Program-made: the position numbers and the translations under genes
In this document: piece after piece, positions 3,412 to 44,316 of the stretch
Numbering within the stretch: the first letter of the stretch is position 1
Layout of the letters: each line of letters begins with the position of its first letter
The notes under the pieces: model-generated
Seen by the model: the letters and a program-made list of their open reading frames with translations, nothing else
What the model was told of the DNA's origin: nothing
Databases searched by the model: none
Virus record (IMG/VR): IMGVR_UViG_3300050821_003608
Location: 466-64,465 of that record
Reading direction: 5' to 3' (one strand)
DNA length: 64,000 nt
Source: a virus
Taxonomy: Duplodnaviria; Caudoviricetes

Positions 3412-6400
3412 CAGTTCGCCTGCACCGTCAAGAGTCTCGGGATGGTGATGCCCAAGCCATAGATTTCCACGTTCGTCGCGGTGTCGGTCGTGCGAGAGAG
3501 TTGAAGACGCAGGACGCCGCCAGCGATGCAGCCCGTCATGGTGATGGTCGAGAGCGTGGCATCCCATTGGCGGTTTGCGTTACCGTTCAGAGTGATGGTT
3601 GAAAGAGATTGCGCGGTGTTGAAGGCCACGTCGTCGGTGGTCGAGCCGTCTCCCTTAGAGCAAGCCGTCGCGATCTGCATGATGACCGTGTGGCCGTTGG
3701 TCGCGTCGGTCGAGGCCAGACGGAGGCGGACGTTTGGATTGGTCGCGGTGTCCCAATCGGCAGGGAGGCCGATAGACATTTGCGCCGTGTCGGACGCGCC
3801 CCATGTGAGGAAGCCCTCTTTGTTGTTCGTTCCGGCGCGGCAGGTCGCAGCGGGAGTCGCAGCGGTAGACCAGCCCGAGGCCGCAACAGCGTTCACACAG
3901 TCCGCCGCCGGGAAGTAGTGGTAGTCCGGGAAGTCGATATAGGCGGGAGGAGAGCCAGCCGTCAATATCTGCTTGCTAGTACCTGCCGCGAGAGATGCAG
4001 CGCCTTGACCACCACCTGACCCAATCACGACTTGGTTGTTGGTCAGAGCCGAGCCCGAAGTCACACAGGTAGCACAAGCAAGAGTTAGATTGGACGTAAG
4101 GGCTGCGCCACCAGTGATGGGGGAGGTCGTATTGATAGTCAGCGTAGTCGAAGTTGCGACAATGGCACCTGTACCGATCGCAGCCAAGCTGCCCGTCGTG
4201 TCCATCTGGACGCCGTTTGCGGTCCCTACGGCAGTAGCCTTGAACGGTTTCAGTGTCGAGGACGCAGCGGTGTGCAAGAACATCAACGCGCCAGTCGAGG
4301 TGGACGCACCGTCCACGATCTCCCAAGCGTTGCGTGTCCCGGTCATCACGCCATGCGTGAAGAGAGAATTGTTCGTGCCCATCGAGAGCGAGAGGTCCGC
4401 GGCGGGATTTGAGAGCGACGACCACACGGTCGAGGCCGAGCCGGCACAGGAGCCCCATGAGGGGGTGCCACCCGATACGCTGATGGCACAGAGCGTACCC
4501 GCGCCGCCCGTGGCGGTCGAGACTAGCTTCGTGCCGTCGGAATAGATGAAGCCGTTCGTGTTGGCGAGGCCAGAGGATGCGTTCGTACCACCGTTCCCAA
4601 ATGGAAGAGTTCCGGTCACGTCCGCAGTGAGGGACACAGCGGACCACGAGGGCGTCGTGCCTGAGTGTAGGAGTTGCGTCGCGGTTCCCGCAGCTAGACG
4701 CGTCCCGGATCCGCTTGTGCCGCCGTAGAGAATGTCTCCGGCCATGGTCAGGGGGGATAGATTGTTGAAGCAGGCAAGGGCAGTCGATGCACCGCAGCCG
4801 CCGTTGGTCACAGGGAGCGTCCCAGTCACGCCGCCGTTGGTGTTGTTGGAGTTGAGATTGATGGGCAGGATGTCCGCCGCGACTATCAAGCGGAAGGTCG
4901 GAGCCGCAGCTGCGCCGGAGGTGGGACCGACGAGGAAGGAGTTGGCGTTCTGCGAGCCGAACATGCCCCCAGTGATATTGCTGCACGTTGGAGATGTGTT
5001 GTCGTTGGCCGCAGTGACGACAGTGGTCGGGGAGCAGCCTCCTACGCCCGAGGCCGGGAGGAAGGACAACGTGGCTACGCTGGAGACGTTGCTGGCCCGC
5101 AGGAAGCCTGTCGCCGCGGAACCAGGGAGGACTATGGCATAGGACGACGGGATGGATGTAGGAGAGTAGATTCGCGCCGAGTTCGTCCCCAGTGGAGGAG
5201 CGGAAGTCTGCGGCAGGTCGATGTAGGATGCGCCAGAACCGATGCCAGTGAAGGAAGTCCCGGTTACGTTGCCACTCACGTCTACCTTATAGACTGTGGT
5301 GCCGGAGGTATCCTTGTAGTTTTCAAAGTTCCCAGTCGGGCCGGAGTTGGTAAATCGCTGCTGGGTGAGAGTGTCAACTCCGTTCGATGGCTGAAGGATA
5401 GTGTGGCCGGACGTGGCCGAATAGGTCCAGTTCGCCGAGCCGGTGACGGCAGAGGAAGTGTTCCAGAAGGTTCCTTGTCCGGCAGAGCCAGTGCCGCCGA
5501 CCGCGCCGGCTGCGCAGGAGTTCCACGTCGCCGTGGAACCGTTCGATACGAGACAGAGGCCGTTCGTGCCGATGCCGAGGCGTCCGGCCGTGTTTACACC
5601 CGTTCCGAGGATTAGGTCGCCGGTGGAAGTGACGGGCGAGAGTGCGTTGAACGCAGCGGAGGCGGTGACTTGGCCCGTGCCGCCATTGGCGATAGCGGTC
5701 GTACCCGTCGTGTCCGTTCCAAGATTGACAGCAGCATAGGTCGGCGCTCCGGCGGCGTTGCCATGGAGCACGGTCGTCGTCGTGCCAGCGGGACCGATTT
5801 GCGTCGCCTGTCCGCCCGCGCCGAGGACGATTTGATTGTTGGTCAGAGCGGCGGCGTTGGTCGTACAGGTCGGACAAGTGAGGTTCCCTGTCGTGGCCGA
5901 GAGCACAAGCGGCGCCGACGCGCCATCGGCGAACGTGCCCGAAGTGTTCGGGAGGGTGAGAGTCGGCGTCCCCGCAATCGCCTGTGGAGTGATAGTCACT
6001 GTGCCCGAAGTAGCACCAGCCATAGCTAATTGACCAGTAGTCGATGCCGCGACGCCGATAGTCAGAGTAGGCGAAACCCACGTAAGGTTCGCCGAGCCGC
6101 CAAACGACCCAGAGTTATTGAACTGGACTTGGGTGTTCGCGCCGCCAGGCGTGCCCGTGCCAGCGGAGCAGGCCGACCATGAGAGTTGCAGCGAGCCGTT
6201 TGAGGACAGACATTGCGTGCCGGAGGAGTCCGTCGTGGGGAACAGCCACACGAGATTGACGGTGGACGCTCCGCCAGTGAAGCCTGCGTAGTTCGTGCCG
6301 TTGGTGCTGAACCAGCGGATCGCCTTCCCGTTGGCGATAGACTGGTGATCGGTCCACGTCTGGGCGAGATTCAGTTCGGCCAGTGTGCCTGTGTTGTTCG

Positions 6401-28127: not shown

Positions 28128-28249
28128 CACTCGCGGAAGCCTATTGGACAGGCATGATAGTCGGGGGGTGTGTGATGGCCACGCTCGGGTGGTTGGGGTG
28201 GTGGCTTGGGCAGCGACCGTGGCGACAGCCACAGAGGAGGGGATTATGA
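28124..28249 (+). CDS. Small membrane protein
   Basis: MTLAEAYWTGMIVGG...; ATGA-coupled on both sides. Confidence 0.5.
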   Translation: MTLAEAYWTGMIVGGCVMATLGWLGWWLGQRPWRQPQRRGL

Positions 28250-28743
28250 CGCGCGGGGAGGAGCTAGTTCAGGCGCAGGACTATGCGAAGTGGATGGTGC
28301 TGCGCATCGTCCGGGACGAGGAGGACGCCAGGGACGTGCTGCAAACGGCCACGGTCAAGGCACTGGTAGCCTTGCGCGAGGGGAGATTCCGCGGGGACTG
28401 CTCGCTCAAGACGTGGTTCTCGACGATCGCGCAGAACGAGGCCAAGATGGTGCTCAGGGGCAGGCTGGGTGCGAAGGGGACTAGACAGTTTTTGTCATTC
28501 GACGAGGGGGACGGGGCCGAGGTGGAGCAGCTTCGGTCTGAGGAAGTGTCGCCGCTGGAGCGGGTGGTGCAGGGCGAGGTGGTGGCGAGGGTGAGGCACG
28601 CGATAGCGAGGCTCTCCCCGCTGATGAGGGAGGAAGCCGGGAGATGGCTGGCCGGCGACAAGGTAGGCGCAGATGGAAGGCGGAAGGCCAGGCGGCATCA
28701 CGCCAGGGTCAGGCTGAGGGAACTATTGAGTGTGGTCCAATGA
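28246..28743 (+). CDS. ECF-type RNA polymerase sigma factor
   Basis: Region 2 DEEDARDVLQ...FRGDCSLKTWFSTIAQN; AIARLSP; region 4 degenerate. Confidence 0.8.
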   Translation: MTRGEELVQAQDYAKWMVLRIVRDEEDARDVLQTATVKALVALREGRFRGDCSLKTWFSTIAQNEAKMVLRGRLGAKGTRQFLSFDEGDGAEVEQLRSEEVSPLERVVQGEVVARVRHAIARLSPLMREEAGRWLAGDKVGADGRRKARRHHARVRLRELLSVVQ

Positions 28744-30197: not shown

Positions 30198-31721
30198 GTG
30201 GAGTGGAGCGCATACCAGAGCGACATTTTCAGGTGGATCGAGGAGAGTCGGGACAGCCTCATCATCGAAGCCGTCGCCGGCTCAGGCAAGACCACGACCA
30301 TCGTCGAGGCCATCAAGCACGTCCCTCCCGAGCAGTCGGTCGTGTTCCTTGCGTTCAACAAGAGCATCGCCGAGGAGCTGAAGCGTAGGGTGACTCAGCC
30401 TAACGCTAAGTGTATGACTTTGCACAGCTTAGGGTTGAGCGCGTGGAAGCAGGCGCTCACTTGGGACGCCCAAGGACTGAACATCGACGGCAAGAAGATC
30501 AGGAACATCATCGACGAGATGGAACTGGAATGGGGGAAGTGGACCAAGGAGATGACCAAGTTGGTCGGGCTCGCCAAGGGCGGAGGGATAGTCCCGAAGG
30601 GATTGGAGGTCAAGTATTCCGGGCTAGTCGAGGACTCCGAGGACGTGTGGGAGGATCTGATGGAGCTGTACGACATCGACCCCGACCAAGTGGACCTTGG
30701 GCTTGTCAGGGAAGTGCTCACGCGCTCGATCGAGCAAGCGCGGGAGGTGATTGATTTTGATGACATGTTGTACATGCCGGTCATCGCGGGGGCGGAGTTT
30801 CAGAAGGCCGACGTGGTGTTTCTGGACGAGGCGCAGGACGTGAACGGGATTCAGGCCGAGATTGTGTCGAGGATGCTCCTACCGGAGTCGCGCGTAGTGG
30901 CCGTGGGCGATCCCAACCAAGCCATCTACGGCTTCCGCGGCGCACTGTCGGACTCCATGCACCAGATTGGAAGGAGATTCCACTGCACGTCCCTCCCGCT
31001 GAGTGTGAGCTATCGCTGCCCGAAGTCGGTGGTGGCGAAGGCGAGGGAGTGGGTCAGCCACATCCTGCCGCATGAGGATTCGATCGAGGGCATCGTGGAG
31101 GACGCGGGGGACTGGCGAGTGGGGGACTTCCGGCCGGGGGACGCCATCCTCTGTAGGAACGCTCGACCGGTGGTCGCCATTGCGTTCCTCCTGATAAGGA
31201 ACAAGGTCGCCGCGAGAGTGGTCGGAAGGGACATCGGACAAGGCTTGGTCAGCCTCATCAATAAGATGAAGGCCTCGACGATCCTCGACCTCGACGAACG
31301 ACTCAGCAAGTATCGGAAGCGCGAAGTCGAGCGCGCGAAGGGGAAGGAAGCCAAGATTGGCGCTCTGGACGACAAGCTCGACACCATCAGAGTGTTCATG
31401 GACGAGGCCGGGCCGCACGCGGGCATCGGGACGCTCATCCAAAGTATCGAGGGCTTGTTCGGCGACGGCGCGGACATGCGCGGCATGGTCACCTGCTCGA
31501 CGGTGCACAAAGCGAAAGGGATGGAGTGGGATCGGGTGTTCGTGCTGGACGCAGACACGCTGATGCCGTCGAGGTGGGCGCGGCAAGCGTGGGAGATGCA
31601 GCAGGAGGACAATCTCTGTTACGTCGCCGCGACGAGGGCCAAGAAGGAGTTACGGTACGTGTCGTCCGAGGGGCTAGGGATAGAGAGGAGGGAGCGTGCC
31701 GCATCGACCGAGAATGCCTAG
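30198..31721 (+). CDS. UvrD/Rep-like SF1A helicase
   Basis: AVAGSGKTT, LAFN, LDEAQD, VGDPNQAIYGFRGA, STVHKAKGMEWD, YVAATRAK. Confidence 0.93.
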   Translation: MEWSAYQSDIFRWIEESRDSLIIEAVAGSGKTTTIVEAIKHVPPEQSVVFLAFNKSIAEELKRRVTQPNAKCMTLHSLGLSAWKQALTWDAQGLNIDGKKIRNIIDEMELEWGKWTKEMTKLVGLAKGGGIVPKGLEVKYSGLVEDSEDVWEDLMELYDIDPDQVDLGLVREVLTRSIEQAREVIDFDDMLYMPVIAGAEFQKADVVFLDEAQDVNGIQAEIVSRMLLPESRVVAVGDPNQAIYGFRGALSDSMHQIGRRFHCTSLPLSVSYRCPKSVVAKAREWVSHILPHEDSIEGIVEDAGDWRVGDFRPGDAILCRNARPVVAIAFLLIRNKVAARVVGRDIGQGLVSLINKMKASTILDLDERLSKYRKREVERAKGKEAKIGALDDKLDTIRVFMDEAGPHAGIGTLIQSIEGLFGDGADMRGMVTCSTVHKAKGMEWDRVFVLDADTLMPSRWARQAWEMQQEDNLCYVAATRAKKELRYVSSEGLGIERRERAASTENA

Positions 31722-32079: not shown

Positions 32080-32224
32080 GTACACGTTCCAGTTTGCGAC
32101 AGCCGAGAGGTTCGGGCAGAACACGGTGACATTCTGCGAGAGCGCACTGCCGTCCGAGTTGCGCGGGTTGGAACTCGACTATGAGGTGGACGTGGTGATG
32201 GTTCCGGTGGGGGTCAGGACATGA
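32021..32224 (+). CDS. Small OB-fold-like hypothetical protein
   Basis: GTG start; beta-rich; coupled to the next gene. Confidence 0.5.
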   Translation: MRAKVIRVESGESFTDKERRYTFQFATAERFGQNTVTFCESALPSELRGLELDYEVDVVMVPVGVRT

Positions 32225-33768
32225 CGCAGAGAGTGTTCACCGATAGATCGCGCATCGAAACCCACCAGCGATGCCCGAGGCTAAGATGGCTGGAGTATCA
32301 CTCCGGCGAGGCGAGGATGGGCGTCGTCAGCGCGAGGAAGCCACTCCCTCTCGCGGTGGGAGGCTCGGTCCACGCTGGGCTGGCCGTCCTGCTCCAATGC
32401 ACGATGGGCATCCCCCTCGGCGAGCTGTCGTTTGAGTTAGCCGAGTTGAAGGCAGTCCGAGCGGCGCTCGCGGACTTCTCTACCTTCGCCAACGCGCTCG
32501 ACATCGACACCTCCGAGCAGGCCGCGTTCTTGGCCACGACCACGGACCCTTCGTTGAAGGAGATGCACGAGGGGATAGTGAGGCGAGCGAAGTCGGACTT
32601 TGACCTCTATCTGTACACGGAGCAGGCGGCGTTGGTCGAGGGGATGGTTCGCGCGTATGCGAGGCGGCGCCTGCGGCCACTGTTGGAGCAGTATGAGGTG
32701 CTGGAGGTGGAGCGGGAGGGGCAGTGGGAACTGCACGAAAGCGAACAGGATTTCAGTTACCCTGGTGGTCGTCGTCCCGCCGTGTGGTTCATGTCCCGCC
32801 CCGACGCGCTCCTGCTCGAACGGGACTCGCGCCAGCTCTACATCCTGAGCTTCAAGACCGCCGGCGGGTGGGACATCCGCAAGGCGAGGGACGCCGAGCA
32901 TGACATGCAGGGGCTCGGTGAGGGCGTGGAGGTCGAGAAGCGGCTCGCTCGACACTGGGAGGTCATCCAGCAAGTCAAGAAGCGACTCCCGGAGGGACAG
33001 GACGTTCTGGAAGTGGCGGTCGGGAAGGAAGTCCTCTCGGGAGCAATGCTCGACTTCCTGAAGCGGTCCCCGGCGCCGCCGCGTATCCTCGGCATCCGAT
33101 ACGAGTACATGTTGAAGGGTGATCGGTGGGTAGACAAGGACTTGAGCGCGAAGCTGGGCGTCGAGGTCCGCTCCCAGCGCAGTCCGCTCGTCCGCGGCTA
33201 TCTCAATCAGGGAATGACCTCGGGGGACGAGCAGTGGAATGTGTCTTGGGACTACGTGAAGGAGGACGGCACCTCGTCGAAGCTGTACTGGAAGAACTGG
33301 AAGTCCTCGCCCGTGTGGGAGCATCAGACCATGAGGGAATGGATTGACAAGCTCGACGCAACGGTGATGACCGTCGGGGAAGAGAATCACGAGCTAGGAT
33401 TCTCCTGCCCAGCGCAATCGACCGGGTTCCTAGCGACGCATCCTCTCGATGACATCTTCATCCCTCCGATCGTGGTGTACCGGAACGACGACGACCTACG
33501 GGACTGGGTGGAGCAGATCGAGGCGCAGGAACGTAGGGTGGCTGAGGGGGTCCAAGCTGTACGGGCCGCGGGCAGTGCGGACGAGGAGCGGTCCATGCTG
33601 AACGTACACTTCCCGATGACGAGACGAGCCTGTGAATATCCAACTACTTGTTCCATGTCGAGATTATGCTATGGAGGAGAGGACATCCGGCGGGATCCGC
33701 TCGGGTCGGGGCTGTACTCGATTCGCAAGGCCAATCATCCGCAGGAGGTGGCTAGTGATAAGTCTTAG
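32221..33768 (+). CDS. PD-(D/E)XK nuclease, Cas4/AddB-like
   Basis: SRIETHQRCPR, GGSVH, SRPDALL, ILSFKT, C-terminal C-x5-C-x5-C. Confidence 0.8.
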   Translation: MTQRVFTDRSRIETHQRCPRLRWLEYHSGEARMGVVSARKPLPLAVGGSVHAGLAVLLQCTMGIPLGELSFELAELKAVRAALADFSTFANALDIDTSEQAAFLATTTDPSLKEMHEGIVRRAKSDFDLYLYTEQAALVEGMVRAYARRRLRPLLEQYEVLEVEREGQWELHESEQDFSYPGGRRPAVWFMSRPDALLLERDSRQLYILSFKTAGGWDIRKARDAEHDMQGLGEGVEVEKRLARHWEVIQQVKKRLPEGQDVLEVAVGKEVLSGAMLDFLKRSPAPPRILGIRYEYMLKGDRWVDKDLSAKLGVEVRSQRSPLVRGYLNQGMTSGDEQWNVSWDYVKEDGTSSKLYWKNWKSSPVWEHQTMREWIDKLDATVMTVGEENHELGFSCPAQSTGFLATHPLDDIFIPPIVVYRNDDDLRDWVEQIEAQERRVAEGVQAVRAAGSADEERSMLNVHFPMTRRACEYPTTCSMSRLCYGGEDIRRDPLGSGLYSIRKANHPQEVASDKS

Positions 33769-33973
33769 TGGTGCGTTCATCACGCGGTTCGAGGAAGAGG
33801 AAGAAATCGCCCGGCGCATGTCGCATGGTGGCCGTCGCGAACGCGTGGAGTTGTTCGTCGAGGCCATGAAGTACGAGTTGGCGAAAGTGCTGATGCCGGA
33901 GGTGGTGCCCAATGCCACGATCTCGCTCCCCCAAAGTGGGGCATCCTCCGCACAGCAACCGAAGGAACAGTAG
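33755..33973 (+). CDS. Hypothetical protein
   Basis: GGAGG RBS, GTG start. Confidence 0.5.
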   Translation: MISLSGAFITRFEEEEEIARRMSHGGRRERVELFVEAMKYELAKVLMPEVVPNATISLPQSGASSAQQPKEQ

Positions 33974-34208
33974 GAACGAGGCTATCTCGCTCCGGGCCTT
34001 GCTGGTGTCGGCTTGTCGCGTCTTGGAGGAGTATTACCCGGAGATGATGCCTCTGCACGTCAAGGAGTGGTGGGCGGCACACAAGAGCATGACGACGAGG
34101 AAGAGAGAGATGAAGCAGGACGCGGAGGCCGCGAGACTTACCTCGGTACTGTCCGAGATGAAGGAGATGGACGAGGATTTCGACAAAATAGTTGAAGATT
34201 TCTCTTGA
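33912..34208 (+). CDS. Hypothetical protein
   Basis: EWWAAHK motif and coiled-coil end. Confidence 0.55.
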   Translation: MPRSRSPKVGHPPHSNRRNSRNEAISLRALLVSACRVLEEYYPEMMPLHVKEWWAAHKSMTTRKREMKQDAEAARLTSVLSEMKEMDEDFDKIVEDFS

Positions 34209-34233
34209 CAGGATTTCGACTTGGACGTAAAGT
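34205..34233 (+). promoter_or_regulatory. Sigma70-type promoter
   Basis: TTGACA-17 nt-TAAAGT. Confidence 0.65.
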
Positions 34234-34271
34234 TCGCAGGCTGACCAACGGTTGATAAACGGATTACGACA

Positions 34272-34448
34272 ATGAAAAAGCGCAAATGCGCCGAATGCAA
34301 ACGTGTCTTCAAGCCGGTTCGCGAGTATCAACTGTACTGCTCGCGGCGGTGCAAGAACCGCGCCGGATCACGTAGGCTGCGGGAACGGGCCAAGAATTAC
34401 GTGGAGATGGTGGCGGAGCACGGAGGGGTGATGGGAGGGAATGACTGA
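34272..34448 (+). CDS. Small zinc-finger protein (CGNR-like, 58 aa)
   Basis: Manual translation MKKRKCAECKRVF...YCSRRCKNRA; TGATG overlap with the next gene. Confidence 0.7.
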   Translation: MKKRKCAECKRVFKPVREYQLYCSRRCKNRAGSRRLRERAKNYVEMVAEHGGVMGGND

Positions 34449-35491
34449 TGGCACGCTCAGGCTGTATCTACTGTCCAACTGGAGCACGCAAGACCTCGCA
34501 GGTGAAGGATTTCGCGCACTACATTGCGAGGAAGACCGGGAAGGCCACGCTCCTGTTATCGACCGACGGCGGGGGATGGGATCCCTGCACTCCCGAGGTC
34601 AACGCGGGGATGATAAAGCCGTATCGCTGCGAAGTGGCCAATATGCCGCTCGTGCTCTTACGAAAAATCAGCCAAGGGTATTGGCCGGTCAATCCCTTGG
34701 AAACCAATCCCGAGCGCATCGACCTCGAACCTATGAACTACGACGAGATTGGAGGCATCGCCGTCGAGGGCTGGTCGTCCATCTCGCAGGTGGTGATGCG
34801 CTACCTGCCCGACCAAGGGATTAGCGTCGGCGGCGAAGACCGCAAGAAGGCCAACTCGAACATGTCCTTCGTCCAGTCCGTGCAGGTGATGGGCCAGTGG
34901 CGGCCCGAGAGCTTCGGGAGCAACACCCGCGGGGACTATGGCTTCGTACAGAATTATCTCTACGGACTAGTGATGAACCTGAACTCACTGCCAGTCGAGT
35001 ACGTTCTCTATACCGCGCTGGAGTCGAAGACCGAGGACGACGACCGCTCGACGACGTTCGGCCCGGCGATCGCGGGGAAGAAGGGAACGCGGGACTGTGG
35101 CGCGTGGGTCGGGGACCTCATTCACGGGCAGGATTACCCTATCGCCAAGAAGATTCAGATGCCTGACCCGGCGGACGCGACCAAGACGATTGAGCTGGAC
35201 CAGATCGACGTGACGGTGCGCTTCCACTTCAGGAAGCATCTCGACCCAGCGACGGGGATTCCATTCCCGGCCAAGCCCAGAGTGACGCCCGAGAAGACCG
35301 AGGCGCTGGAGAAGAGGTTCCCAGGGGGATACTTCGAGCCGTATGTGAAGGATGAGGTCGTGTACGAGGGGTTCGGCACGTACCTCGACGTGGTGGATTC
35401 GCTGGGAGCGATGCAAGCGGATACGCTCAAGGATTGGCGCACGAGGATGGACGCCAAGCTCGGGAGAGTTTCAGCAGGTCAGGGGAAGTAG
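34448..35491 (+). CDS. Sak4/AAA_24-like ATPase (single-strand annealing)
   Basis: N-terminal degenerate P-loop YCPTGARKTS, IAVEG, DYG..Q, GPAIAGKK; lies between a nuclease and an SSB-like gene. Confidence 0.7.
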   Translation: MARSGCIYCPTGARKTSQVKDFAHYIARKTGKATLLLSTDGGGWDPCTPEVNAGMIKPYRCEVANMPLVLLRKISQGYWPVNPLETNPERIDLEPMNYDEIGGIAVEGWSSISQVVMRYLPDQGISVGGEDRKKANSNMSFVQSVQVMGQWRPESFGSNTRGDYGFVQNYLYGLVMNLNSLPVEYVLYTALESKTEDDDRSTTFGPAIAGKKGTRDCGAWVGDLIHGQDYPIAKKIQMPDPADATKTIELDQIDVTVRFHFRKHLDPATGIPFPAKPRVTPEKTEALEKRFPGGYFEPYVKDEVVYEGFGTYLDVVDSLGAMQADTLKDWRTRMDAKLGRVSAGQGK

Positions 35492-35522
35492 AATTTCAAT
35501 CTAATCGAAAAGAGGAAACGAA

Positions 35523-36353
35523 ATGGCAACACCATCGAAACCATGGGAAGTCAGTCAGGGCAGTCAGGGCGGTGCTCCGTCGCAGCCAGGACAGCCAGGG
35601 GAGGCTCCGGTCAACGGCGCCGCACCAGTCTCGTCCGACGTACAGGATGTCATCGACCCGAACGACCCTCGCCTGGTATCAGAAGCCGTGGACGTGAACG
35701 TCGAAGGCGACGCTTACGCGCAGCCCAGTCCGCCGCCGGACGGGAAGTACCGTATCAAACTGAAGCTGGAGGGGATCGAGAAGGCCGACAAGTCGCATCT
35801 CGACTATGAACACACCGCGACGAAGAAGGCGCCCGTGATGCCGTACTTTCACACGCGCATCTCGGCCACCATCATCGACCCGACTGGAAAGTACGACGGC
35901 ATCAAGGTCTACCCGGAGTTCGGCGGCTACGTCGGCACGCTCCAGAACAAGGACCGCTCGACCAAGGTCGCGACGATCCTCGCGCGGCTGAAGCGGCCGG
36001 ACGGCCAGCCATGGGTCAACTCGACGATGAAGATGGACCAGAAGGGCTGGATGGACCTCTTCGTGAAAGCTCTGGCGGGCGAGCCGGAAATCGGCGGCGA
36101 GCTGCAATGGCAAGCGAGCTGCGAACAGTGCGGCAAGGAAGCCAAGGCCGCCAGGGAGCAGGGAAAGGACGCTGCGTACCCCGCGAACGTGAATGGGATG
36201 CATCGGTTCCCGCAGGAGCAGTCGGCAGACAAGCGGAAGTCGGCCGGCCACGGATACTCGTCCGAGGTGAAGTGTCAGAAGGACGCCTCACACGGGTACT
36301 CCAGAGCGCAGGCCCGCATCGTGCGGTTCCTGCACACGCATGAGTTGAAGTAA
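35523..36353 (+). CDS. Putative single-stranded DNA-binding protein
   Basis: PPPDGKYRIKL motif typical of Sak4-associated SSBs; CxxC insert. Confidence 0.55.
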   Translation: MATPSKPWEVSQGSQGGAPSQPGQPGEAPVNGAAPVSSDVQDVIDPNDPRLVSEAVDVNVEGDAYAQPSPPPDGKYRIKLKLEGIEKADKSHLDYEHTATKKAPVMPYFHTRISATIIDPTGKYDGIKVYPEFGGYVGTLQNKDRSTKVATILARLKRPDGQPWVNSTMKMDQKGWMDLFVKALAGEPEIGGELQWQASCEQCGKEAKAAREQGKDAAYPANVNGMHRFPQEQSADKRKSAGHGYSSEVKCQKDASHGYSRAQARIVRFLHTHELK

Positions 36354-36569
36354 GTCGAGTTGGGTGGTGGGAAGGTCGGCTACTTGGCTGACGAGGCTCC
36401 TGGACCAACATCGCAGGAAAGGACGCCACCCTTTTGAGGTTCACGAGAGAGCCCGTATGAAAACTCTACCCCTCCACGGGGAGAGGCTCATGGGCTGGGA
36501 TACGATGGCTCTCTCGTGGGCATGTCTCATCCTCACCATCGAGCCCCACATTTGAAAAAGGAGAACGAT

Positions 36570-36842
36570 ATGGCAGCACGAGGTTCGGCATTGCAACGCG
36601 CGCTCACGTATTTTCGTGAGGCGCAGATCGACGAAGCAAGGGTCGCGTACCAGCTGGCCGAGGAGATTATGACCAAGCGGCTGGATGATGCGGAGAAGGA
36701 CTTCGCTCCATTCAAAGCGAAGGCATCGACACCGAGAAAGCAGCGGAAGACACGGACGCCCAAGACAGGCGCAACCACCGACCACCAGGACGTTCAGGCT
36801 CCTCCAGCACAGGAGCACCGGGAGTCCCTGGCCGACGCATGA
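36570..36842 (+). CDS. Small basic protein
   Basis: AAGGAG RBS. Confidence 0.65.
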   Translation: MAARGSALQRALTYFREAQIDEARVAYQLAEEIMTKRLDDAEKDFAPFKAKASTPRKQRKTRTPKTGATTDHQDVQAPPAQEHRESLADA

Positions 36843-38179
36843 ACGAAGAGGTCCAACTCGGCCAAGTCGACTCCGAGATCCAGCTCGTCGGGGAGGAACT
36901 CCCAGTTCCATGTGAGTTCCTCACCGGCAAAGCTGGGAGCGGCAAGACGTATGAGGTGCTCCGCCGCGTGGGGGCGGACCCATCCTACGGGCTGGTCTGC
37001 GCGACCACGGGCATCGCGGCCGTGAACCTAGGCGCCGTGACCATCAACTCGGTGCTCAAGTATTTCGACACTGCGTCGATGCGAGACTCCTACCTCGCCG
37101 GCCACCTCACCCGCGTCCTGCACAAGATCGCCAAGGAGAAGCGTCGCATCATCATCGACGAGGGGTCCATGCTTGAAGCGGAACAGCTTGGCTACCTCTA
37201 TCGTGCGACACAGGAGGCCAATCGCTTCGCCGACGTGAAAGTGCCCCTCGGTATCGTAGTGGTCGGGGACTTCGCCCAGCTCCCTCCGGTGAAGGGCGCC
37301 TGGGCGTTCACCTCCCCGTACTGGGCGGAGTTCGCATCGAACACCACGAGACTCGACAAGGTATGGCGGCAGGGAGAGGGACAGTTCCTCGACGCACTGA
37401 ACTTCGCTCGTGTCGGGGACGGACTGTCCTGCGCCAAGACATTATCTGAGGCCGGGGCGGGATGGAACTCCTCTCGCGACATGGACTTTGAAGGCACGAC
37501 CATCTTGTGCAAGAACGACATGGTGTCGCGGCACAACGACGTGGTGCTCGACCGCGTTCCTGGACCACGCTTCAAAGTAACCTCCGAGCGATGGGGCAAG
37601 CAACGCTCGGAGTGGGGCGAGAATAAACGTACCCACGAGTGGGGCATCCCTCCGTCGTCGGAGTTCAAGCTGGGCGCGTATGTGATGGTGCTGTCCAACA
37701 CGCGCGACTTCAGCATGGTCAACGGGGATTGCGGCTGGGTCCGATCCTACGATCCCGACCTGGAAGTGTTCACGGTCGAACTCATCCGCACCAAGAAGGA
37801 AGTCGTGGTTGGTAGGATCGTGCGTGAGGTCGCCGCGACGGACGAGCCCGAGGGATGGGTGGGAGACGAGTTGGACCGCGACGACGAGGCTGGGTGGCTG
37901 CCACGGCAGCACTATAGACCAAAGGACAAGAAGTACGTGCTGGGGCAGATTCGATATTTCCCGCTGAGGCTGGCCTACGCGTCGACGGTGCACAAGTCGC
38001 AAGGACTCACGCTCGACCGCGTGCAGGTGGACTACCGCGACCGATTCTTCGAGAGTGCGGCCATGGTATACGTCGCGCTCTCGCGGTGCCGGACACTCGA
38101 AGGGTTGCGACTGGTCGGTGGGCCGGACGTGCTGGCGCAAAAGTGTAGGGCGGATGTGAGGGTGATGGCATGGCTCTAG
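36839..38179 (+). CDS. PIF1/RecD-like SF1B helicase
   Basis: TGKAGSGKT, ATTGIAA, IIDEGSM, GDFAQLPPV, LAYASTVHKSQGLTLD, YVALSR. Confidence 0.93.
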   Translation: MNEEVQLGQVDSEIQLVGEELPVPCEFLTGKAGSGKTYEVLRRVGADPSYGLVCATTGIAAVNLGAVTINSVLKYFDTASMRDSYLAGHLTRVLHKIAKEKRRIIIDEGSMLEAEQLGYLYRATQEANRFADVKVPLGIVVVGDFAQLPPVKGAWAFTSPYWAEFASNTTRLDKVWRQGEGQFLDALNFARVGDGLSCAKTLSEAGAGWNSSRDMDFEGTTILCKNDMVSRHNDVVLDRVPGPRFKVTSERWGKQRSEWGENKRTHEWGIPPSSEFKLGAYVMVLSNTRDFSMVNGDCGWVRSYDPDLEVFTVELIRTKKEVVVGRIVREVAATDEPEGWVGDELDRDDEAGWLPRQHYRPKDKKYVLGQIRYFPLRLAYASTVHKSQGLTLDRVQVDYRDRFFESAAMVYVALSRCRTLEGLRLVGGPDVLAQKCRADVRVMAWL

Positions 38180-38868: not shown

Positions 38869-38907
38869 CTCCGAGGTGCAAACCGAATAGTTGTGTTGGA
38901 GCCTTTC

Positions 38908-39312
38908 ATGCCTAGAAAGGGAACGAATCCGTATCGTTCCTCGACTTTTAGACGAAGCTGTCACAGAAAGTCTAGAAGGTTGTATGAGAGAACGTACAAT
39001 ATAAAACTCCCTTACTGGGTTGATGTTCATCATAAGAACGGCGACTACGCTGACATCAGAATAGAAAACCTCGTTGCTCTGGATGAGGCTACTCACAACC
39101 GAGTTCACTTCACCAAGCACTCCGAGCCTATACGATGGAAGCGCCCTGAGCACAAGAAGTATCAAAGAGAATATAAAAAGAGGATTCGGGTTGTGAGGAT
39201 TTGCGCTAGGTGTGGTGCGTCTTTTACGTGCGACAAGTATCACAAGGGTCTATGTTGCTCAGTTGGATGCTATCTGAGAGGAATGTCTCGTGGCAGCTCG
39301 TTCAAAGCCTAA
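38908..39312 (+). CDS. HNH homing endonuclease
   Basis: DVHHKNGDYADIRIENL...HNRVH plus C-terminal CxxC..C; lower GC. Confidence 0.8.
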   Translation: MPRKGTNPYRSSTFRRSCHRKSRRLYERTYNIKLPYWVDVHHKNGDYADIRIENLVALDEATHNRVHFTKHSEPIRWKRPEHKKYQREYKKRIRVVRICARCGASFTCDKYHKGLCCSVGCYLRGMSRGSSFKA

Positions 39313-42300
39313 CTCGTGTATTGGTTGTGTCTGTCACGACATGGGAACGGACTTCTCTGCGATCGAGGGCACGGGCAGCTCGGGGATTATGTTGGTGGGG
39401 GAGGCGTCAGGTGAGCATGAACAACGCGATGGGCTACCGTTTCGACCTCACGCCCCTGCTGGCGGAGTTCTGGAGCGCACTCTTCGGCGCATGGGCCTTG
39501 ATCGTCAGCAATTCTCCATTACTAACGTTGTGCGCTGTCGTCCTCGCAAAAATTGGCTGGAAGGCTCTCCGTGGGAATTTTCGGCTATCAATCATTGTCG
39601 TCCCAACTTGGACGCCGCCATTGCCGAGCGCCGTCCGCGTGTCATCGTCGCGCTCGGAGGGACCGCGCTCAGGGAATTGACGGGAATGGCCGGGGAGGCG
39701 CAGGGGATTTCTCACTTGGCTGGCTATGTGTTGCCCCTCGCGATTCCTACGATGATTCCCTGTTCGGAGCCAGCAGAGTTGGATGGGAAGCACCATCCTA
39801 ATTGTTTCATCTGTGGGGGGTCGGGATTCATCGGAGGGCGTGGAGCTGGGACCATCCCAGTGATTGGAGACTTCCACCCCTCCTTCCTGCGCCACGGGAA
39901 GATGGCCCTCGGCGGGGTGTTCGCCCGCATCCTCCAGCGCGCCACCAATATCGCGAAGGGATTGGATAGGGAGTGGCTGTGGGGAGTGGACCCACGAGAC
40001 CATTCCACTTGGGGGAAAAAGCAGTACGTAATTCATCCGTCCGTGGATGACGCACGAGCCCTACGGAACCGCGTCTACGACAATCAGAATATTCCCGTGG
40101 CAGAGGACATCGAGACTCCCGAGTCTGCCTCTATGGACGAAGACGCCCGAGACGGATACAAAGACACGGAGATCCGCCAGATTCAATTCAGCATGGGCAA
40201 GGGCGAGGGGATGGCCTTTCCGTGGGAGGAGCCGTTCCGGTCCATCGCTTCGGAGATTATGCACTCTCCTAACCCGAAGTATGGGCACAACTGGGACAAC
40301 TACGACCACAAAGTTCTGCGAGCGGCGGCAGCCCGTGAGGGGTGGAGTTATGCCCCCACAGTTCGGGTTCTGGACACTCTGGACTTATTCCATCATTGGC
40401 AGCCCGACCTTCCGGCGCATCTCCAGTTTGCCTGTAACTTTATCTCGTTCCCCTTTCCTTGGAAGCACCTGCATACGCTAGAGAACGAGCCTTTCTATGG
40501 CTGTGTGGACGTAGACTCGGACTGGCAGCTCGGGGAGATGCTCATTAGGACGTTGAAGCGCGACGACATGTACGGGTTCGCTCAGTCGTCGATTGGGTAC
40601 ATAGGGCAGGTCTATGAGGTCCGCCCGGTCCTCGCCGCGATGGAGGACCGCGGGATGCCCATCGACGACGCTGCGAGGCTGGCGCTCGACGTGGAGTTTG
40701 AGATTGCCCAGCGCGAGTTGGGCACAGAGCTGGCGAAGCTGGCGCCCAGACAGTGCGGAAGACTCCAGCCCAAGGAGGGATACAAAGGGGTTCCTCCAGA
40801 GATGAAGCCGTGGATTAACACTCCACAGTTACAGGAGGAGATGGACCGCCCGAGGCTTGACGACAGGGAATACTACCACTACGCGATTTACGACTTCCCC
40901 GTGGCAATCAGAGGAGCCAACGATGAGCTAGCTATCGAGAAGGTGGACCGCTGGGTCCGCGTCTACGACTTCAACCCGAACTCTCGGCCGCAAATCATCA
41001 ACTACATGAAGGCCAAGGGCCACCCGGTCCCCAAGTCGAAGGAAGAAGACTCCGAGGGCAATGCGAAGGAGACCACTGCGGCGAAGGAGCTGATGCGCCT
41101 CGCCGCGAAGACGGGGGACGACTTCTATCTCAAGTGCAATCAGTACAAGGGATATACGAAGATGCGCGGCACCTACGTCGCGGGATTCATCCCCGGCGAG
41201 GACGGCTGCGTACACACGACCTTCACCTTCGACACCGGAATTGGGCAGCTATCTTCCAGAAATCCTAATATCCAGAACTTCCCCAAGCTGAAGCCTACCC
41301 CCGCGATCGCCAAGTCCATGCGCAAGATGGTCGCGGCCAAGCCGGGGCACGTACTGACGGAGTGGGACTTCAAATCCTGCCACGTCATCACGCTCGGCTT
41401 CCTGGCCGAAGACCTGAACTACATGAGACTGGGGAGATTGGACATCCACTCGTTCGTCGCCGGCCACTTTCTCGGCCACTGGGATGGACTGAAGATATTC
41501 GGCGAGACCGACGAGGAGTTGCTGGCCCGATTCAAATGGCTGAAATCGGACGAAGTAAGAAGGACGGTGCGCGATGACCAAGCCAAGCATGGGATACTTG
41601 GTATTGGTAACGGGCTCAAAGCGAAGGGTCTTTACGAACGCTACATGGAATCGTTTCCTCCAACGCCATGCCAGGTCTGCGCTGGAACGGGCAAGGTTGC
41701 AGGCGTCCGTGGGCCTAAGAAGTGCGCGTCGTGTCAAGGAATAGGGAAGGTCCCCGGCCAGCGAGTCGCCGAGCGCGTCCTCGAAGTGTGCGAATCCCTC
41801 TTCCCGAACGTCTTCGCCTACCAGAAGCGGGAAGTGAAACAAGCACACGAGCAGCAATTCCTCAAGACCGACTTCGGGCATATTCGCCGCTTCTACGAGG
41901 TGTTCCGCTGGGACCATCGCCGTGGCGACTGGGGGCCGGGTGACCAGCATGAGGAGGCAGTGGCGTTCCGCCTTGCGAACATCGCGTTCGGGCATATACG
42001 GGAGAAGCTCAAACAGTTGCACTACTCGGGGCTGGCCGAGCGATGGGGACTTTTCAACAACGTACATGATAGCTTCCTCTTTAATTTCCCCGAGAGTCAG
42101 TTAGAGGAGCATGTCGCCGAGGTCTACCCTGTCCTCGTCGAACCATCGAAGGTGCTGCGTCATCCAACGATATGCCCTGACGGACTGGTGATCGGTGTCG
42201 AAGGCGCGTGGGGCAGGACGTGGGCCGACATGCAGGAGATCAAGGTCGGGGTCAGTGCGGCATCCTCCAGCCATGAGCCGGAGGTATCTCGTGACGCGCA

Positions 42301-42361
42301 CACGTCTCAAAGCGCGGATCTGGCAACTGCGCGAATGGGAACCGATAGGGGAACGCTGTGA
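39290..42361 (+). CDS. Family A DNA polymerase with N-terminal family-4 uracil-DNA glycosylase-like domain (SPO1-type architecture)
   Basis: UDG motifs GEASG..E..GLPF, TNVVRCRP, HPSF; exonuclease DIET, GHN..YD, Y...D; LSSRNPNIQNFP; motif C VHDS. Confidence 0.92.
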   Translation: MAARSKPNSCIGCVCHDMGTDFSAIEGTGSSGIMLVGEASGEHEQRDGLPFRPHAPAGGVLERTLRRMGLDRQQFSITNVVRCRPRKNWLEGSPWEFSAINHCRPNLDAAIAERRPRVIVALGGTALRELTGMAGEAQGISHLAGYVLPLAIPTMIPCSEPAELDGKHHPNCFICGGSGFIGGRGAGTIPVIGDFHPSFLRHGKMALGGVFARILQRATNIAKGLDREWLWGVDPRDHSTWGKKQYVIHPSVDDARALRNRVYDNQNIPVAEDIETPESASMDEDARDGYKDTEIRQIQFSMGKGEGMAFPWEEPFRSIASEIMHSPNPKYGHNWDNYDHKVLRAAAAREGWSYAPTVRVLDTLDLFHHWQPDLPAHLQFACNFISFPFPWKHLHTLENEPFYGCVDVDSDWQLGEMLIRTLKRDDMYGFAQSSIGYIGQVYEVRPVLAAMEDRGMPIDDAARLALDVEFEIAQRELGTELAKLAPRQCGRLQPKEGYKGVPPEMKPWINTPQLQEEMDRPRLDDREYYHYAIYDFPVAIRGANDELAIEKVDRWVRVYDFNPNSRPQIINYMKAKGHPVPKSKEEDSEGNAKETTAAKELMRLAAKTGDDFYLKCNQYKGYTKMRGTYVAGFIPGEDGCVHTTFTFDTGIGQLSSRNPNIQNFPKLKPTPAIAKSMRKMVAAKPGHVLTEWDFKSCHVITLGFLAEDLNYMRLGRLDIHSFVAGHFLGHWDGLKIFGETDEELLARFKWLKSDEVRRTVRDDQAKHGILGIGNGLKAKGLYERYMESFPPTPCQVCAGTGKVAGVRGPKKCASCQGIGKVPGQRVAERVLEVCESLFPNVFAYQKREVKQAHEQQFLKTDFGHIRRFYEVFRWDHRRGDWGPGDQHEEAVAFRLANIAFGHIREKLKQLHYSGLAERWGLFNNVHDSFLFNFPESQLEEHVAEVYPVLVEPSKVLRHPTICPDGLVIGVEGAWGRTWADMQEIKVGVSAASSSHEPEVSRDAHTSQSADLATARMGTDRGTL

Positions 42362-42445: not shown

Positions 42446-43459
42446 GTGATGAACCTGAACACTAAATTCACGCGCGGACAACTCGGCGGGTTCGCTGCGG
42501 AATTGCAGGCCATCAGTGCCAAGATTGGCTTTAAGGTTTCCGCTCGCGGTTGGTGCTATCTCTTAGAGCAATCTCGGTTAATCAACAAGGACCAGTTCGA
42601 CAAAGTGGAAGGCGTTATTAATCGTTGCCGTCGCCTAGGGATTCTGCCGGTTGATTTTATCGCTGAGGAAGATGCGCGGGCATTTCATGGCGTTGAAACT
42701 AAGAGCGATGGGACAGTGGAAGATACGCTGAAATGGATGCTGAAAGACGTTCTTGACGGCCATCGGTACTACACTCCCGATTGGTGGGACGGCGAGAAGT
42801 TCTACATTCAGATGCTAGTCGAAAAGATTGACCTCAAGACCCTCTTCGAGCCTGTGTGCTCGCAGTATCATATTCCCATCGCCAACTCGAAGGGATGGTC
42901 CTCGATTCTCCAGCGAGCGGAGTATGCAAGGAGATTCAGCGAGGCTGAAGACCGTGGCTTGCGGTGCGCGCTGTTGTATTGCGGGGACCACGACCCGGAC
43001 GGACTGCGAATATCGAGCACGCTGCGAGCTAACTTAGAGCAAATCACCGACATCGAATGGGACGATGGAACGCGCGGTTACGACCCAGTGAACCTTGAGA
43101 TTCGACGCTTCGGGTTGAACTACGATTTCATTGCCGAGCGTGGCTACGCTTGGATTGATAACCTCATCACAGGTTCTGGCAAGAATCTGGCCAGTCCGTC
43201 GCACCCTAATTTCCGCCTGCCCTACCTTCAACAATATCTGAAAACGATAGGCGCTCGTAAGTGCGAGGCCAACGCGATTGTTACGACCCCCGATGCCGCG
43301 CGAACGTTGTGTAGGCAAGCGATAGAGTCGCTGATTGGTACGGGAGCGAGAAACCGTTTTGCCGTGAAGCGCGAATTGGTAAAGCAAGATTACGCGGCAG
43401 TGCTGGCAAAGTCGGGACTGTCTAAGGCTATATCGAAGGCGCTGAAAAATGGAGCGTAA
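42446..43459 (+). CDS. Topoisomerase VI-A/Spo11-like WHD plus TOPRIM protein
   Basis: SARGWCYLL, LVEKIDL, SKGWSS, GDHDPDG, EANAI. Confidence 0.75.
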   Translation: MMNLNTKFTRGQLGGFAAELQAISAKIGFKVSARGWCYLLEQSRLINKDQFDKVEGVINRCRRLGILPVDFIAEEDARAFHGVETKSDGTVEDTLKWMLKDVLDGHRYYTPDWWDGEKFYIQMLVEKIDLKTLFEPVCSQYHIPIANSKGWSSILQRAEYARRFSEAEDRGLRCALLYCGDHDPDGLRISSTLRANLEQITDIEWDDGTRGYDPVNLEIRRFGLNYDFIAERGYAWIDNLITGSGKNLASPSHPNFRLPYLQQYLKTIGARKCEANAIVTTPDAARTLCRQAIESLIGTGARNRFAVKRELVKQDYAAVLAKSGLSKAISKALKNGA

Positions 43460-43751
43460 ACGCATGACCCCCTCGAAACGGCAGCGGCGGAGCGGGGGCC
43501 AGGTGCAGCTAGTGGATACGTTGTACGGTTGCGTTTGCGGCCACTCTTGGTGGTCGATGCGTAATCCCCGGCGTTGCCCCAGGTGTAGGAGGATGCGCCA
43601 AACGAAGCTACAGAAGGCGGTCCTCCAAGCAGTGCAAGTCGAGAGCGATTGGTGGCACAAGGAATGGCACAACGCTACGGGAATTCCTTGCGATGGCGTT
43701 TCCGAGTACTGCCCGCTGGTGCGCCGCGAAAGGTCGGCCAAGCATGGGTGA
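43449..43751 (+). CDS. Zinc-ribbon protein
   Basis: CVCGHSW....PRRCPRC. Confidence 0.6.
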   Translation: MERKRMTPSKRQRRSGGQVQLVDTLYGCVCGHSWWSMRNPRRCPRCRRMRQTKLQKAVLQAVQVESDWWHKEWHNATGIPCDGVSEYCPLVRRERSAKHG

Positions 43752-44316
43752 GCGAGTGACGACGTTGAGCGATTGCCGAAAGTACCGCTACACGCTTTGG
43801 CGCGACTGGCCGATGTCAGATGGTGAGGAGCGTCAAGGGTTCGACCGCGAGCGCGCTTACGCGATGTTTATTGGCCTGAATCCGTCTACCGCCGACGAAG
43901 TGGAGGACGACCCAACGATACGTCGCTGCATAGGTTTCGCAAAGTCTTGGGGCTACGGAGCGTTGTGCATGACGAATCTGTTTGCTTTCCGTGCGACGAA
44001 TCCCAAGGAACTGTACCGCAACAGCAACGTTGTGGGCGCAGAAAACGATGAGTGGATTAAGCGATGCGCCAAAGGCGCGTGCGTTGTCGTGGCCGCATGG
44101 GGTAAGGATGGAGACCACCTATACCGAGACCAAGACGTGCCTTACATGCTGGCGCAGTTAGAAGGATTTCCGAGCGAGCGGTTCAAATGTTTCGGACGTA
44201 ACAAGGATGGGTCACCGAAGCATCCGCTTTACTTGGCGAAGACCACGCCACTGATTCCATTTTGGCAGATGTGCGGCCCGCGCCGCAGGCGGAGAAGGGA
44301 ACGAAATGAGGACTAA
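43744..44316 (+). CDS. DUF1643 family protein
   Basis: YRYTLWR, FIGLNPSTADE..DDPTIRRC, NLFAFRATNP, PKHPLY. Confidence 0.9.
   Translation: MGERVTTLSDCRKYRYTLWRDWPMSDGEERQGFDRERAYAMFIGLNPSTADEVEDDPTIRRCIGFAKSWGYGALCMTNLFAFRATNPKELYRNSNVVGAENDEWIKRCAKGACVVVAAWGKDGDHLYRDQDVPYMLAQLEGFPSERFKCFGRNKDGSPKHPLYLAKTTPLIPFWQMCGPRRRRRRERNED

Follow-up and report, generated by a model that had tools for sequence, protein, structure and literature searches.

Fusions joining uracil-DNA glycosylase (UDG) to a family A DNA polymerase (PolA) are known from N4-like phages, in which the UDG is dead, and from SPO1-like and SP15-like phages, in which it is live, as the texts of PMC10201439 and PMC13697223 describe. 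For the SP15-like enzymes, cryo-EM structures, excision of template uracil and A-rule bypass are reported in the text of Missoury et al. 2026 (PMC13697223). According to its text, the 2023 classification of PolAs finds strict conservation of the catalytic residues, names B3 as the most variable of the conserved positions, and treats Phe at B4 as unique to DpoZ (PMC10201439). The steric-gate Glu and its Tyr partner are held to be near-universal in family A, and both textbook treatments of sugar selectivity and the engineering of Taq- and Klenow-type enzymes centre on the pair. Here, we describe a UDG-fused PolA in which this pair is replaced by His and Asn. It is encoded by the tailed-phage record IMGVR_UViG_3300050821_003608 (Duplodnaviria; Caudoviricetes), and the window analysed, 64,000 nucleotides long, covers bases 466–64465 of that record. 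Comparison of the protein with its relatives indicates that the sugar-selectivity pocket is rebuilt throughout a subfamily: Glu has given way to an invariant His, the F762 position (B3) is occupied by Leu, and the Y766 position (B4) drifts among Phe, Asn and Leu.

The IMG/VR record is 64,465 bp long, has direct terminal repeats and is judged 100% complete; the genome was assembled by ordinary DNA sequencing. A six-frame PF00476 search of the whole record matched a single open frame, in two stretches that both lie in the polymerase gene. The 1023-aa gene product is a family A replicase with proofreading and is the sole polymerase of this complete ~64.5-kb phage genome. The alignments of its relatives begin at residues 3–6, which supports the GTG start. 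The features of the gene are as follows.

39290..42361, + strand: polymerase gene; 1023 aa, fusing UDG, 3'-5' exonuclease and family A polymerase; GTG start, coordinates include the stop
39305..39958, + strand: family-4 UDG domain (aa ~6–223); GEASG with E38, N79, HPSF with H196; phmmer match to 4zbx at E=4e-14
39755..39835, + strand: insertion in the UDG domain (aa 156–182); C158, H168/H169 and a CxxCxGxG element (C172, C175)
40022..40579, + strand: 3'-5' exonuclease domain (aa ~245–430); Exo I D273/E275, Exo II N334/D339, Exo III Y403/D407
41348..41404, + strand: motif A (aa 687–705); catalytic D693 at 41366–41368, His698 at the steric-gate position at 41381–41383
41552..41614, + strand: motif B / O-helix (aa 755–775); R761, K766, L770, N774 (41609–41611), G775
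41669..41752, + strand: zinc-ribbon-like insertion in the fingers after motif B (aa 794–821); two DnaJ-like CxxCxGxG elements (C794, C797, C812, C815)
42065..42073, + strand: motif C, H926-D927-S928, equivalent to E. coli H881-D882-E883 in the profile and HHalign alignments

In the Pfam search, both PF03167 (family-4-type UDG, residues 30–156, E=1.9e-20) and PF00476 (DNA_pol_A, E=1.2e-18, 67.7 bits against a cut-off of 34.3) were above their cut-offs. Among solved structures, phmmer related residues 8–136 to family-4 UDGs and residues 558–727 to Taq/Klenow-type polymerases. An AlphaFold2 model built from 106 full-length relatives has a mean pLDDT of 91.6 and a pTM of 0.89; its last 35 residues are disordered. 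Foldseek matched the model to the Klenow, Bst and KlenTaq/Taq large fragments at E~1e-22, with TM scores by target of 0.7–0.8 and 15–18% identity, and the fold of the exonuclease domain is that of the Klenow, Bst and Taq large fragments. The modelled secondary structure includes a strand at 687–694, a helix at 697–705, the O-helix at 755–773 and the motif C hairpin at 921–925/928–934.

The catalytic set of family A polymerases (the motif A Asp, the motif C His-Asp, and the Arg and Lys of motif B) is all present, with R761 conserved in at least 90% of the 106 sequences. Two other positions of family A differ: the gate Glu, highly conserved though not a defining feature, which is His698 here, and the B4 Tyr, which is Asn774. 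The codons of motif A are gac (D693), ttc, aaa, tcc, tgc and cac (H698), reading D-F-K-S-C-H, and those of motif B are aag (K766), cat, ggg, ata, ctt (L770), ggt, att, ggt, aac (N774) and ggg (G775). A HMMER profile of 29 relatives, confined to the polymerase region, was compared with the PDB and matched Taq at E=3e-23, placing D693 on Taq D610, H698 on Taq E615 and HDS on Taq HDE. A profile of 120 close relatives compared with E. coli Pol I (NC_000913) placed D693 on D705 and H698 on E710. HHalign of the clade alignment with a 68-sequence alignment of canonical PolAs, E. coli first (probability 100, E=2.7e-57, 339 columns), gave the equivalences R761=R754, K766=K758, L770=F762, N774=Y766 and G775=G767; relative to E. 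coli, the O-helix has one extra residue, D763, between R761 and K766, and a 30-residue insertion follows it. Since plain HMMER left motif B unaligned to both Taq and E. coli, the assignment of N774 to Y766 rests on HHalign, on the K-x3-[L/F]-G-x2-[N/Y]-G spacing and on the modelled helix.

A sequence-only reading had placed His at the E710 position and Asn at the Y766 position, with the catalytic Asp residues, the exonuclease motifs and the fused UDG intact. The Taq, E. coli and HHalign alignments agree with it, and none of them puts a Glu at the gate. Intactness was likewise borne out: the exonuclease residues D273, E275, N334, D339, Y403 and D407 are each conserved in at least 90% of the 106 full-length sequences, PF03167 is recognised, and the only invariant columns of that alignment are G455, Q653, D693, H698, H720, K766, H926 and D927. 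As judged from these columns, His698 is constrained as strongly as the catalytic residues. Misalignment, a sequencing error or a decaying gene could in principle produce such residues, and the failure of plain HMMER at motif B would fit this. However, three independent alignments concur on motif A and HHalign on motif B, the His is invariant across hundreds of independent metagenomic sequences, and the 1023-aa frame is open, with a high-confidence fold and every catalytic residue in place. We regard an artefact as effectively refuted, with next to no probability left to it.

A search of 1.84 billion representative proteins for relatives gave 664 matches at E<=1e-30 and 12,654 overall; the best 150, down to 34% identity, were used. 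Out of 265 proteins fetched, 231 had D693, K766 and D927 all aligned and were counted; this sample consists of the sequences scoring best against the query polymerase. The 34 rows dropped comprise 19 with D and H at motif A but another anchor absent, nine fragments without the region, and six misaligned or interrupted long forms (P0122, P0126, P0180, P0182, P0186 and P0202, the last aligned as D...R). The gate residue is His in 230 of the 231 sequences and Glu in one (P0254), and His698 cannot be put down to a sequencing error because it recurs in nearly all alignable relatives. The Y766 position holds Asn in 130, Phe in 78, Leu in 14, Tyr in four, and another residue or a gap in five. At the F762 position, Leu (210) and His (13) prevail, and the third residue of motif C is Ser (160), Ala (47), Glu (10) or Asp (8). 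Close relatives with 56–80% identity (n=120) all have His698; Asn774 is found in 118 of them and Phe in the other two.

Several relatives are much longer than the query: P0079, P0088 and the 1200–1700-aa forms P0122, P0126, P0199, P0260 and P0262. Two long relatives contain the intein/Hint Pfam domains PF14890 and PF07591, and for some the alignment shows a break in motif A or B, which suggests that inteins are inserted at the active-site motifs of some long relatives.

Outside the clade, the picture is different. A scan of IMG/VR with patterns taken from the alignment gave 80 loci, eight of them full-length relatives, all with His at the gate. The other 72 PolA loci have Glu at the gate in 63 cases and are unalignable at motif A in nine; His does not occur among them. 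As read from the records, the gate is Glu in the polymerases of E. coli, T7, P74-26, N4, SP-15, MW202455, MW202554, phiLo and CP-51, and B4 is Tyr in all nine save phiLo, whose motif B escaped the search pattern. In the 68-sequence comparison set, the gate is Glu in 67, B4 is Tyr in 65 and Phe in two, and the F762 position is Phe in 65. MW202554 (L006) is the nearest deposited phage relative; its UDG-exonuclease (1727–2986) and polymerase (3138–4364) are two separate genes, and it retains the gate Glu (DKNQLE). The third residue of motif C in the 68 PolAs is Ser in 37, Glu in 11 and Ala in 10. HDS, with Ser at the E883 position, was accordingly dropped as part of the oddity, since Ser or Ala is common in phage PolAs (47/68); the Tt72 polymerase, according to the text of PMC9324360, combines Ser at E883 with an ordinary Glu gate. 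A separate observation concerns E691 (41360–41362), two residues before D693 on the same strand face: this position is Glu in 189/231 sequences of the clade versus 15/68 other PolAs. E691 may be a relocated carboxylate that partly compensates for the lost carboxylates, and we keep this as a weak note only.

A FastTree phylogeny (LG+gamma) was built from the 231 sequences together with E. coli, P74-26 and MW202554 (234 tips, rooted on E. coli; supports are FastTree local values). On it, the gate changes twice and the Y766 position 27 times. Apparently, there was roughly one origin of the His, at the root of a large clade of metagenomic UDG–PolAs. The Glu-gated P0254 has Tyr at the Y766 position and falls in a small basal group with three His/Tyr sequences. 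Asn is fixed in a clade of 124 sequences that includes the protein studied here (support 1.0; 122 Asn, two Phe), and it also arose several times elsewhere on the tree. The topology indicates the order of events: His came first, and Asn followed later in a subclade that also gained the zinc-ribbon insert. The sequence-only reading had taken the His and Asn for one coupled change. The association between the two positions stands: outside the clade Glu goes with Tyr, inside it His goes with a residue other than Tyr in 227 of 230 sequences, and P0254 has Glu and Tyr together. A fixed His/Asn pair, however, does not exist; His precedes Asn and is combined with Phe, Asn, Leu and rarely Tyr, and the two positions differ in their number of changes. 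A single basal gate transition allows no statistical test of coupling, and the changes at the two positions appear only loosely coupled.

By analogy with PolD, His698 probably still excludes ribonucleotides as a histidine gate. The imidazole would pack against C2' of the incoming nucleotide and block a 2'-OH, and the enzyme would remain a dNTP-specific, primer-dependent replicase. With the Glu carboxylate gone, the Tyr hydroxyl would have no partner and would no longer be needed, which would explain why Tyr is almost absent and why the Y766 position drifts. In PolD of Thermococcus 9°N, according to the text of PMC7708050, H931 provides ~2300-fold discrimination against rATP, which is lost in H931A; the same text gives H931 a proposed role in binding the 3'-OH and mentions a histidine gate proposed for family C polymerases. 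B4 is described, beside the gate, as aiding dNTP/NTP discrimination (text of PMC10201439), and a stacking role of the tyrosine in the open complex is documented for KlenTaq (text of PMC7155079).

Several points weigh against a histidine gate of this kind. That His698 faces the sugar is an assumption drawn from homology, and a His substitution at the PolA gate position was not reported in the literature searched, which excluded subscription-only sources. The pocket differs at several points at once (Leu at F762, Asn at Y766, Gly773, and the extra residue between R761 and K766); therefore, the mechanism may diverge beyond what is assumed. In addition, the loss of Tyr at B4 could weaken dNTP/NTP discrimination.

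The opposite possibility is that the His/Leu/Asn pocket has a relaxed or altered sugar selectivity and admits rNTPs or 2'-modified nucleotides, for example, for starting or restarting synthesis without a dedicated primase. Both positions involved in dNTP/NTP discrimination are altered, as the text of PMC10201439 defines them, and the genes around the polymerase bear on the question of priming.

28144–28743, + strand: sigma-70 region-2 protein, upstream of the replication module
30198–31721, + strand: UvrD-like helicase, upstream
32221..38179, + strand: conserved upstream replication-recombination module (nuclease-like / Sak4-like / ORF276 / helicase)
32221–33768, + strand: PD-(D/E)XK nuclease-like protein, 515 aa; Atlas score 0.98 to PDDEXK_1 clusters; RecB/Cas4-like, with Cys near both ends
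34448–35491, + strand: Sak4-like ATPase (Pfam and PHROGs)
35523–36353, + strand: open reading frame (ORF) of 276 aa in the upstream module
36839–38179, + strand: Dda/PIF1-like helicase (Pfam and PHROGs)
38893–39312, + strand: HNH endonuclease; its gene shares 23 bases with the start of the polymerase gene
42446–43459, + strand: protein of PHROG 6247 ('DNA topoisomerase'), directly downstream; Topo VI-A/Spo11-type Toprim signal (Atlas 0.89) and GDHDPDG motif, a lead only
43693–44316: DUF1643 protein, downstream

The portal and large terminase genes are on the opposite strand. The order nuclease / Sak4 / ORF276 / helicase / polymerase recurs in three of the eight related IMG/VR loci (L013, L015 and L016), and the same module is partly present in two more (L012 and L017). 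A similar HNH gene lies upstream of the polymerase in L017. The PHROG 6247 Toprim-like gene was not found near the polymerase in the eight related loci.

Six-frame searches of the complete genome gave no match to Prim-Pol, Toprim_2, DNAG_N, the DnaG zinc ribbon or DnaB (DnaB_C), and the three primase families tested in five related virus records, two of them at least 90% complete, were each found in 0/5. The earlier observation that no primase is visible thus holds at the Pfam level for this genome and five relatives. This is in favour of relaxed selectivity, although such negatives are an absence of matches to known families, in a genome with many unassigned ORFs, and not evidence of self-priming. 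Primase-less phages often rely on a host primase, transcripts or recombination, and the nuclease / annealase / helicase module suits recombination-dependent priming. A novel primase is also possible despite the Pfam blank, and the Toprim-like protein encoded directly downstream might have a priming or nicking role that has gone unrecognised. The ORF at 32221–33768, which has no Pfam or PHROG match, was considered as a hidden primase and set aside, because it resembles a PD-(D/E)XK nuclease instead. No family A polymerase is known to start chains de novo. Histidine is bulkier than a gate needs to be and serves as the gate in PolD, while the proofreading exonuclease is intact in what is the only polymerase of a double-stranded DNA phage. 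Relaxed selectivity is, in our estimate, quite unlikely.

Alternatively, the pocket may have adapted to modified bases or a non-canonical pool of dNTPs, the situation of thymidine-hypermodified phages with UDG–PolAs, or to a different catalytic metal or pH, given that two carboxylates are lost and His favours Mn2+. Active-type UDG fusions occur in the modified-thymidine phages SPO1, SP-10, SP-15 and YerA41 (texts of PMC10201439 and PMC13697223), and the equivalents of E710 and E883 are both uncharged here. Nevertheless, Ser or Ala at the E883 position is ordinary in phage PolAs and accompanies a Glu gate in Tt72, and the gate touches the sugar, not the base. The complete genome, searched in six frames, gave no match to a thymidylate synthase/hydroxymethylase homologue (PF00303). 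Other nucleotide-metabolism enzymes were not detected by Pfam or PHROGs in the 43 ORFs scanned (Pfam 41, PHROGs 20 and NCBIfam 7, overlapping), a set that leaves aside ORFs shorter than 120 aa and several in the structural region. This explanation seems to us very improbable. Overall, the sequence-only reading had raised rNTP use, self-priming and modified DNA or nucleotides, and no evidence for any of them was found: histidine is a proven steric gate in family D (text of PMC7708050), and no thymidylate synthase homologue was matched.

The UDG domain offers another possible link to the altered pocket. Its residues E38, G41, N79, C83, C103, H196 and P197 are conserved in at least 90% of the 106 sequences, and Cys 10, 13, 83 and 103 occupy what we take to be the Fe–S ligand positions of family 4. 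The corresponding motifs of the phiLo polymerase are GEAPG at 52 and HPSFV at 178, where E53 and H178 flank the flipped uracil (text of PMC13697223). With its catalytic-type residues retained, the fused UDG probably scans template DNA for uracil, by analogy with the SP15-like polymerases. The insertion within this domain lies in a low-confidence stretch of the AlphaFold2 model (residues ~150–189, pLDDT 52–66) and may form a second small metal site. HHalign shows no counterpart in E. coli Pol I for the zinc-ribbon-like insertion in the fingers, which contains a modelled hairpin (802–805/808–811); the double CxxC is present in 105/130 Asn-type versus 2/78 Phe-type relatives. This putative zinc ribbon might touch the template strand en route to the UDG.

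The pocket could, then, be an adaptation to the UDG. The glycosylase would make abasic sites in the template just ahead of synthesis, and the change at the Y766 position, with His compensating, would alter abasic bypass or nucleotide choice; stalling, or an escape from the C-to-T result of the A-rule, are possible outcomes. The conserved E38, N79 and H196 are in line with this, and it is the Y766 position that is labile in the clade. Obeid et al. are said to have described, in 2010 and 2012, 'amino-acid templating' by this tyrosine, which reportedly occupies the gap across from an abasic site and makes dA the favoured insertion. KlenTaq complexes with abasic sites exist (structure titles 3lwl and 3rrg), and SP15-like UDG–PolAs remove dU from the template before the fork reaches it and mostly insert dA when they bypass abasic sites (text of PMC13697223). 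These SP15-like comparators retain the gate Glu, and SP-15 the Tyr too. However, the invariant change in the clade is the gate, which touches the sugar and not the template and would be left unexplained, and neither partner known from the SP15-like repair scheme was matched in six-frame searches of the complete genome: no ATP-ligase (PF01068) and no PolX palm (PF14792), the latter a weak test, as 14 control genomes also gave none above the cut-off. Such an adaptation is unlikely.

More generally, there is a small chance that the lineage-wide swap of Glu/Tyr for His with a non-aromatic or Phe partner has changed the substrates accepted or the mode of copying. The possibilities would include tolerance of ribo- or 2'-modified nucleotides, a different metal need, and protein-templated handling of abasic sites made by the enzyme's own UDG. 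If true, a polymerase of family A that follows non-canonical substrate rules would exist in nature, and it would offer polymerase engineering a new scaffold. A histidine that continues to act as a steric gate remains the reading we prefer. In either case, nature has replaced the Glu/Tyr pair in more than 230 distinct sequences of the sample, and the representative clusters that match the query at E<=1e-30 number 664 at most.

When the 1023-aa protein was compared by tblastn with deposited phage records (50,697), the 33 matches were all partial, none with at least 60% identity and none with at least 80% coverage; no Spounavirinae polymerase and no N4 were among them. On these comparisons, the polymerase has no cultured relative. 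A scan of GTDB genomes gave a single match, a 1-kb contig in a Terracidiphilus metagenome-assembled genome, and this one contig is too weak for Terracidiphilus to be named as the host. The cluster look-up returned no informative names, and the UDG, PolA and DpoZ matches of NCBIfam to the polymerase were all below threshold.

Like the SP15- and SPO1-like UDG–PolAs (SP-15, YerA41 and phiLo), the enzyme is a tailed-phage replicase in which a proofreading exonuclease and a PolA follow an N-terminal family-4 UDG that keeps catalytic-type residues, and it shares with SP-15 and with CP-51, a Spounavirinae phage related to SPO1, the Ser as the third residue of motif C. Unlike them, it has His at the gate, where SP-15 (DFSQME), phiLo (DYSQME) and CP-51 (DYSQLE) have Glu. 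B3 is Phe and B4 is Tyr in SP-15 and CP-51, and phiLo has Phe at B3 (F930, as published), whereas Leu770 and Asn774 are found here. The SP15-like enzymes are further characterised by Insert 1, Insert 2 and a C-terminal domain of ~80 aa. The polymerase profile has no detectable relation to SP-15 (E 0.2–0.4), the protein is 152 aa shorter than that of phiLo (1023 versus 1175 aa) and has its own zinc-ribbon-like insert, and the phage is without the PolX, ATP-ligase and thymidylate synthase homologues of the SP15-like group (the PolX search being weak).

With the N4-like UDG–PolAs (cluster #17 of Czernecki et al. 2023, PMC10201439), the protein shares the three-domain UDG / exonuclease / polymerase build. 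In a BFVD structure search, it matched phage polymerases of 820–1060 aa over ~1000 aligned columns, at 13–18% identity and none higher; thus, the architecture as such is known. Among the best of these matches are Achromobacter phage Motura, Erwinia phage pEa_SNUABM_5 and Vibrio phage HCMJ, which we take to be N4-like phages. The similarity to N4 gp39 is weak and partial (HMM E=1.6e-6). Unlike the present enzyme, gp39 has a Glu gate (DFASLE), Phe at B3 and Tyr at B4, and N4 encodes a primase according to its annotation; the UDG of N4-like enzymes has lost the catalytic residues (text of PMC10201439), whereas E38, N79 and H196 are kept here. The Klenow, Bst, KlenTaq and Thermus phage G20c/P74-26 PolAs, the best solved-structure matches, have the same fold and catalytic motifs but differ in their Glu/Phe/Tyr pocket and have neither a UDG nor a zinc ribbon. 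The DpoZ clusters (#18/#19) have Phe at B4, the only ones so noted, and the phiVC8-like DpoZ also has Leu at B3; in the text of PMC10201439, no gate change is given for them, and they lack a UDG and serve aminoadenine genomes. The NCBIfam DpoZ model scored the polymerase at 15.6 bits against a cut-off of 500.

On the features compared, the protein therefore appears to belong neither to the N4-like family, given its live-type UDG and Leu at B3, nor to the SP15-like one. No description of a UDG–PolA with a gate His was found in the literature searched, of which subscription-only sources are not part, and His at A2 is not mentioned in the text of the 2023 classification (PMC10201439), its motif logos and supplements being outside this statement. 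The relatives form a large subfamily of UDG-fused family A polymerases with a His gate, apparently undescribed and as yet without cultured members, and the 19-cluster scheme of 2023, judging by the published text, seems not to include this subfamily. The histidine gates of PolD (H931) and, as proposed, of family C are alike in working only; their folds are unrelated, and convergence would be the most that could connect them with His698. The clade raises the question of whether families A, C and D arrived at histidine gating by convergence, and also that of how the O-helix tyrosine and a fused UDG act together at abasic sites.

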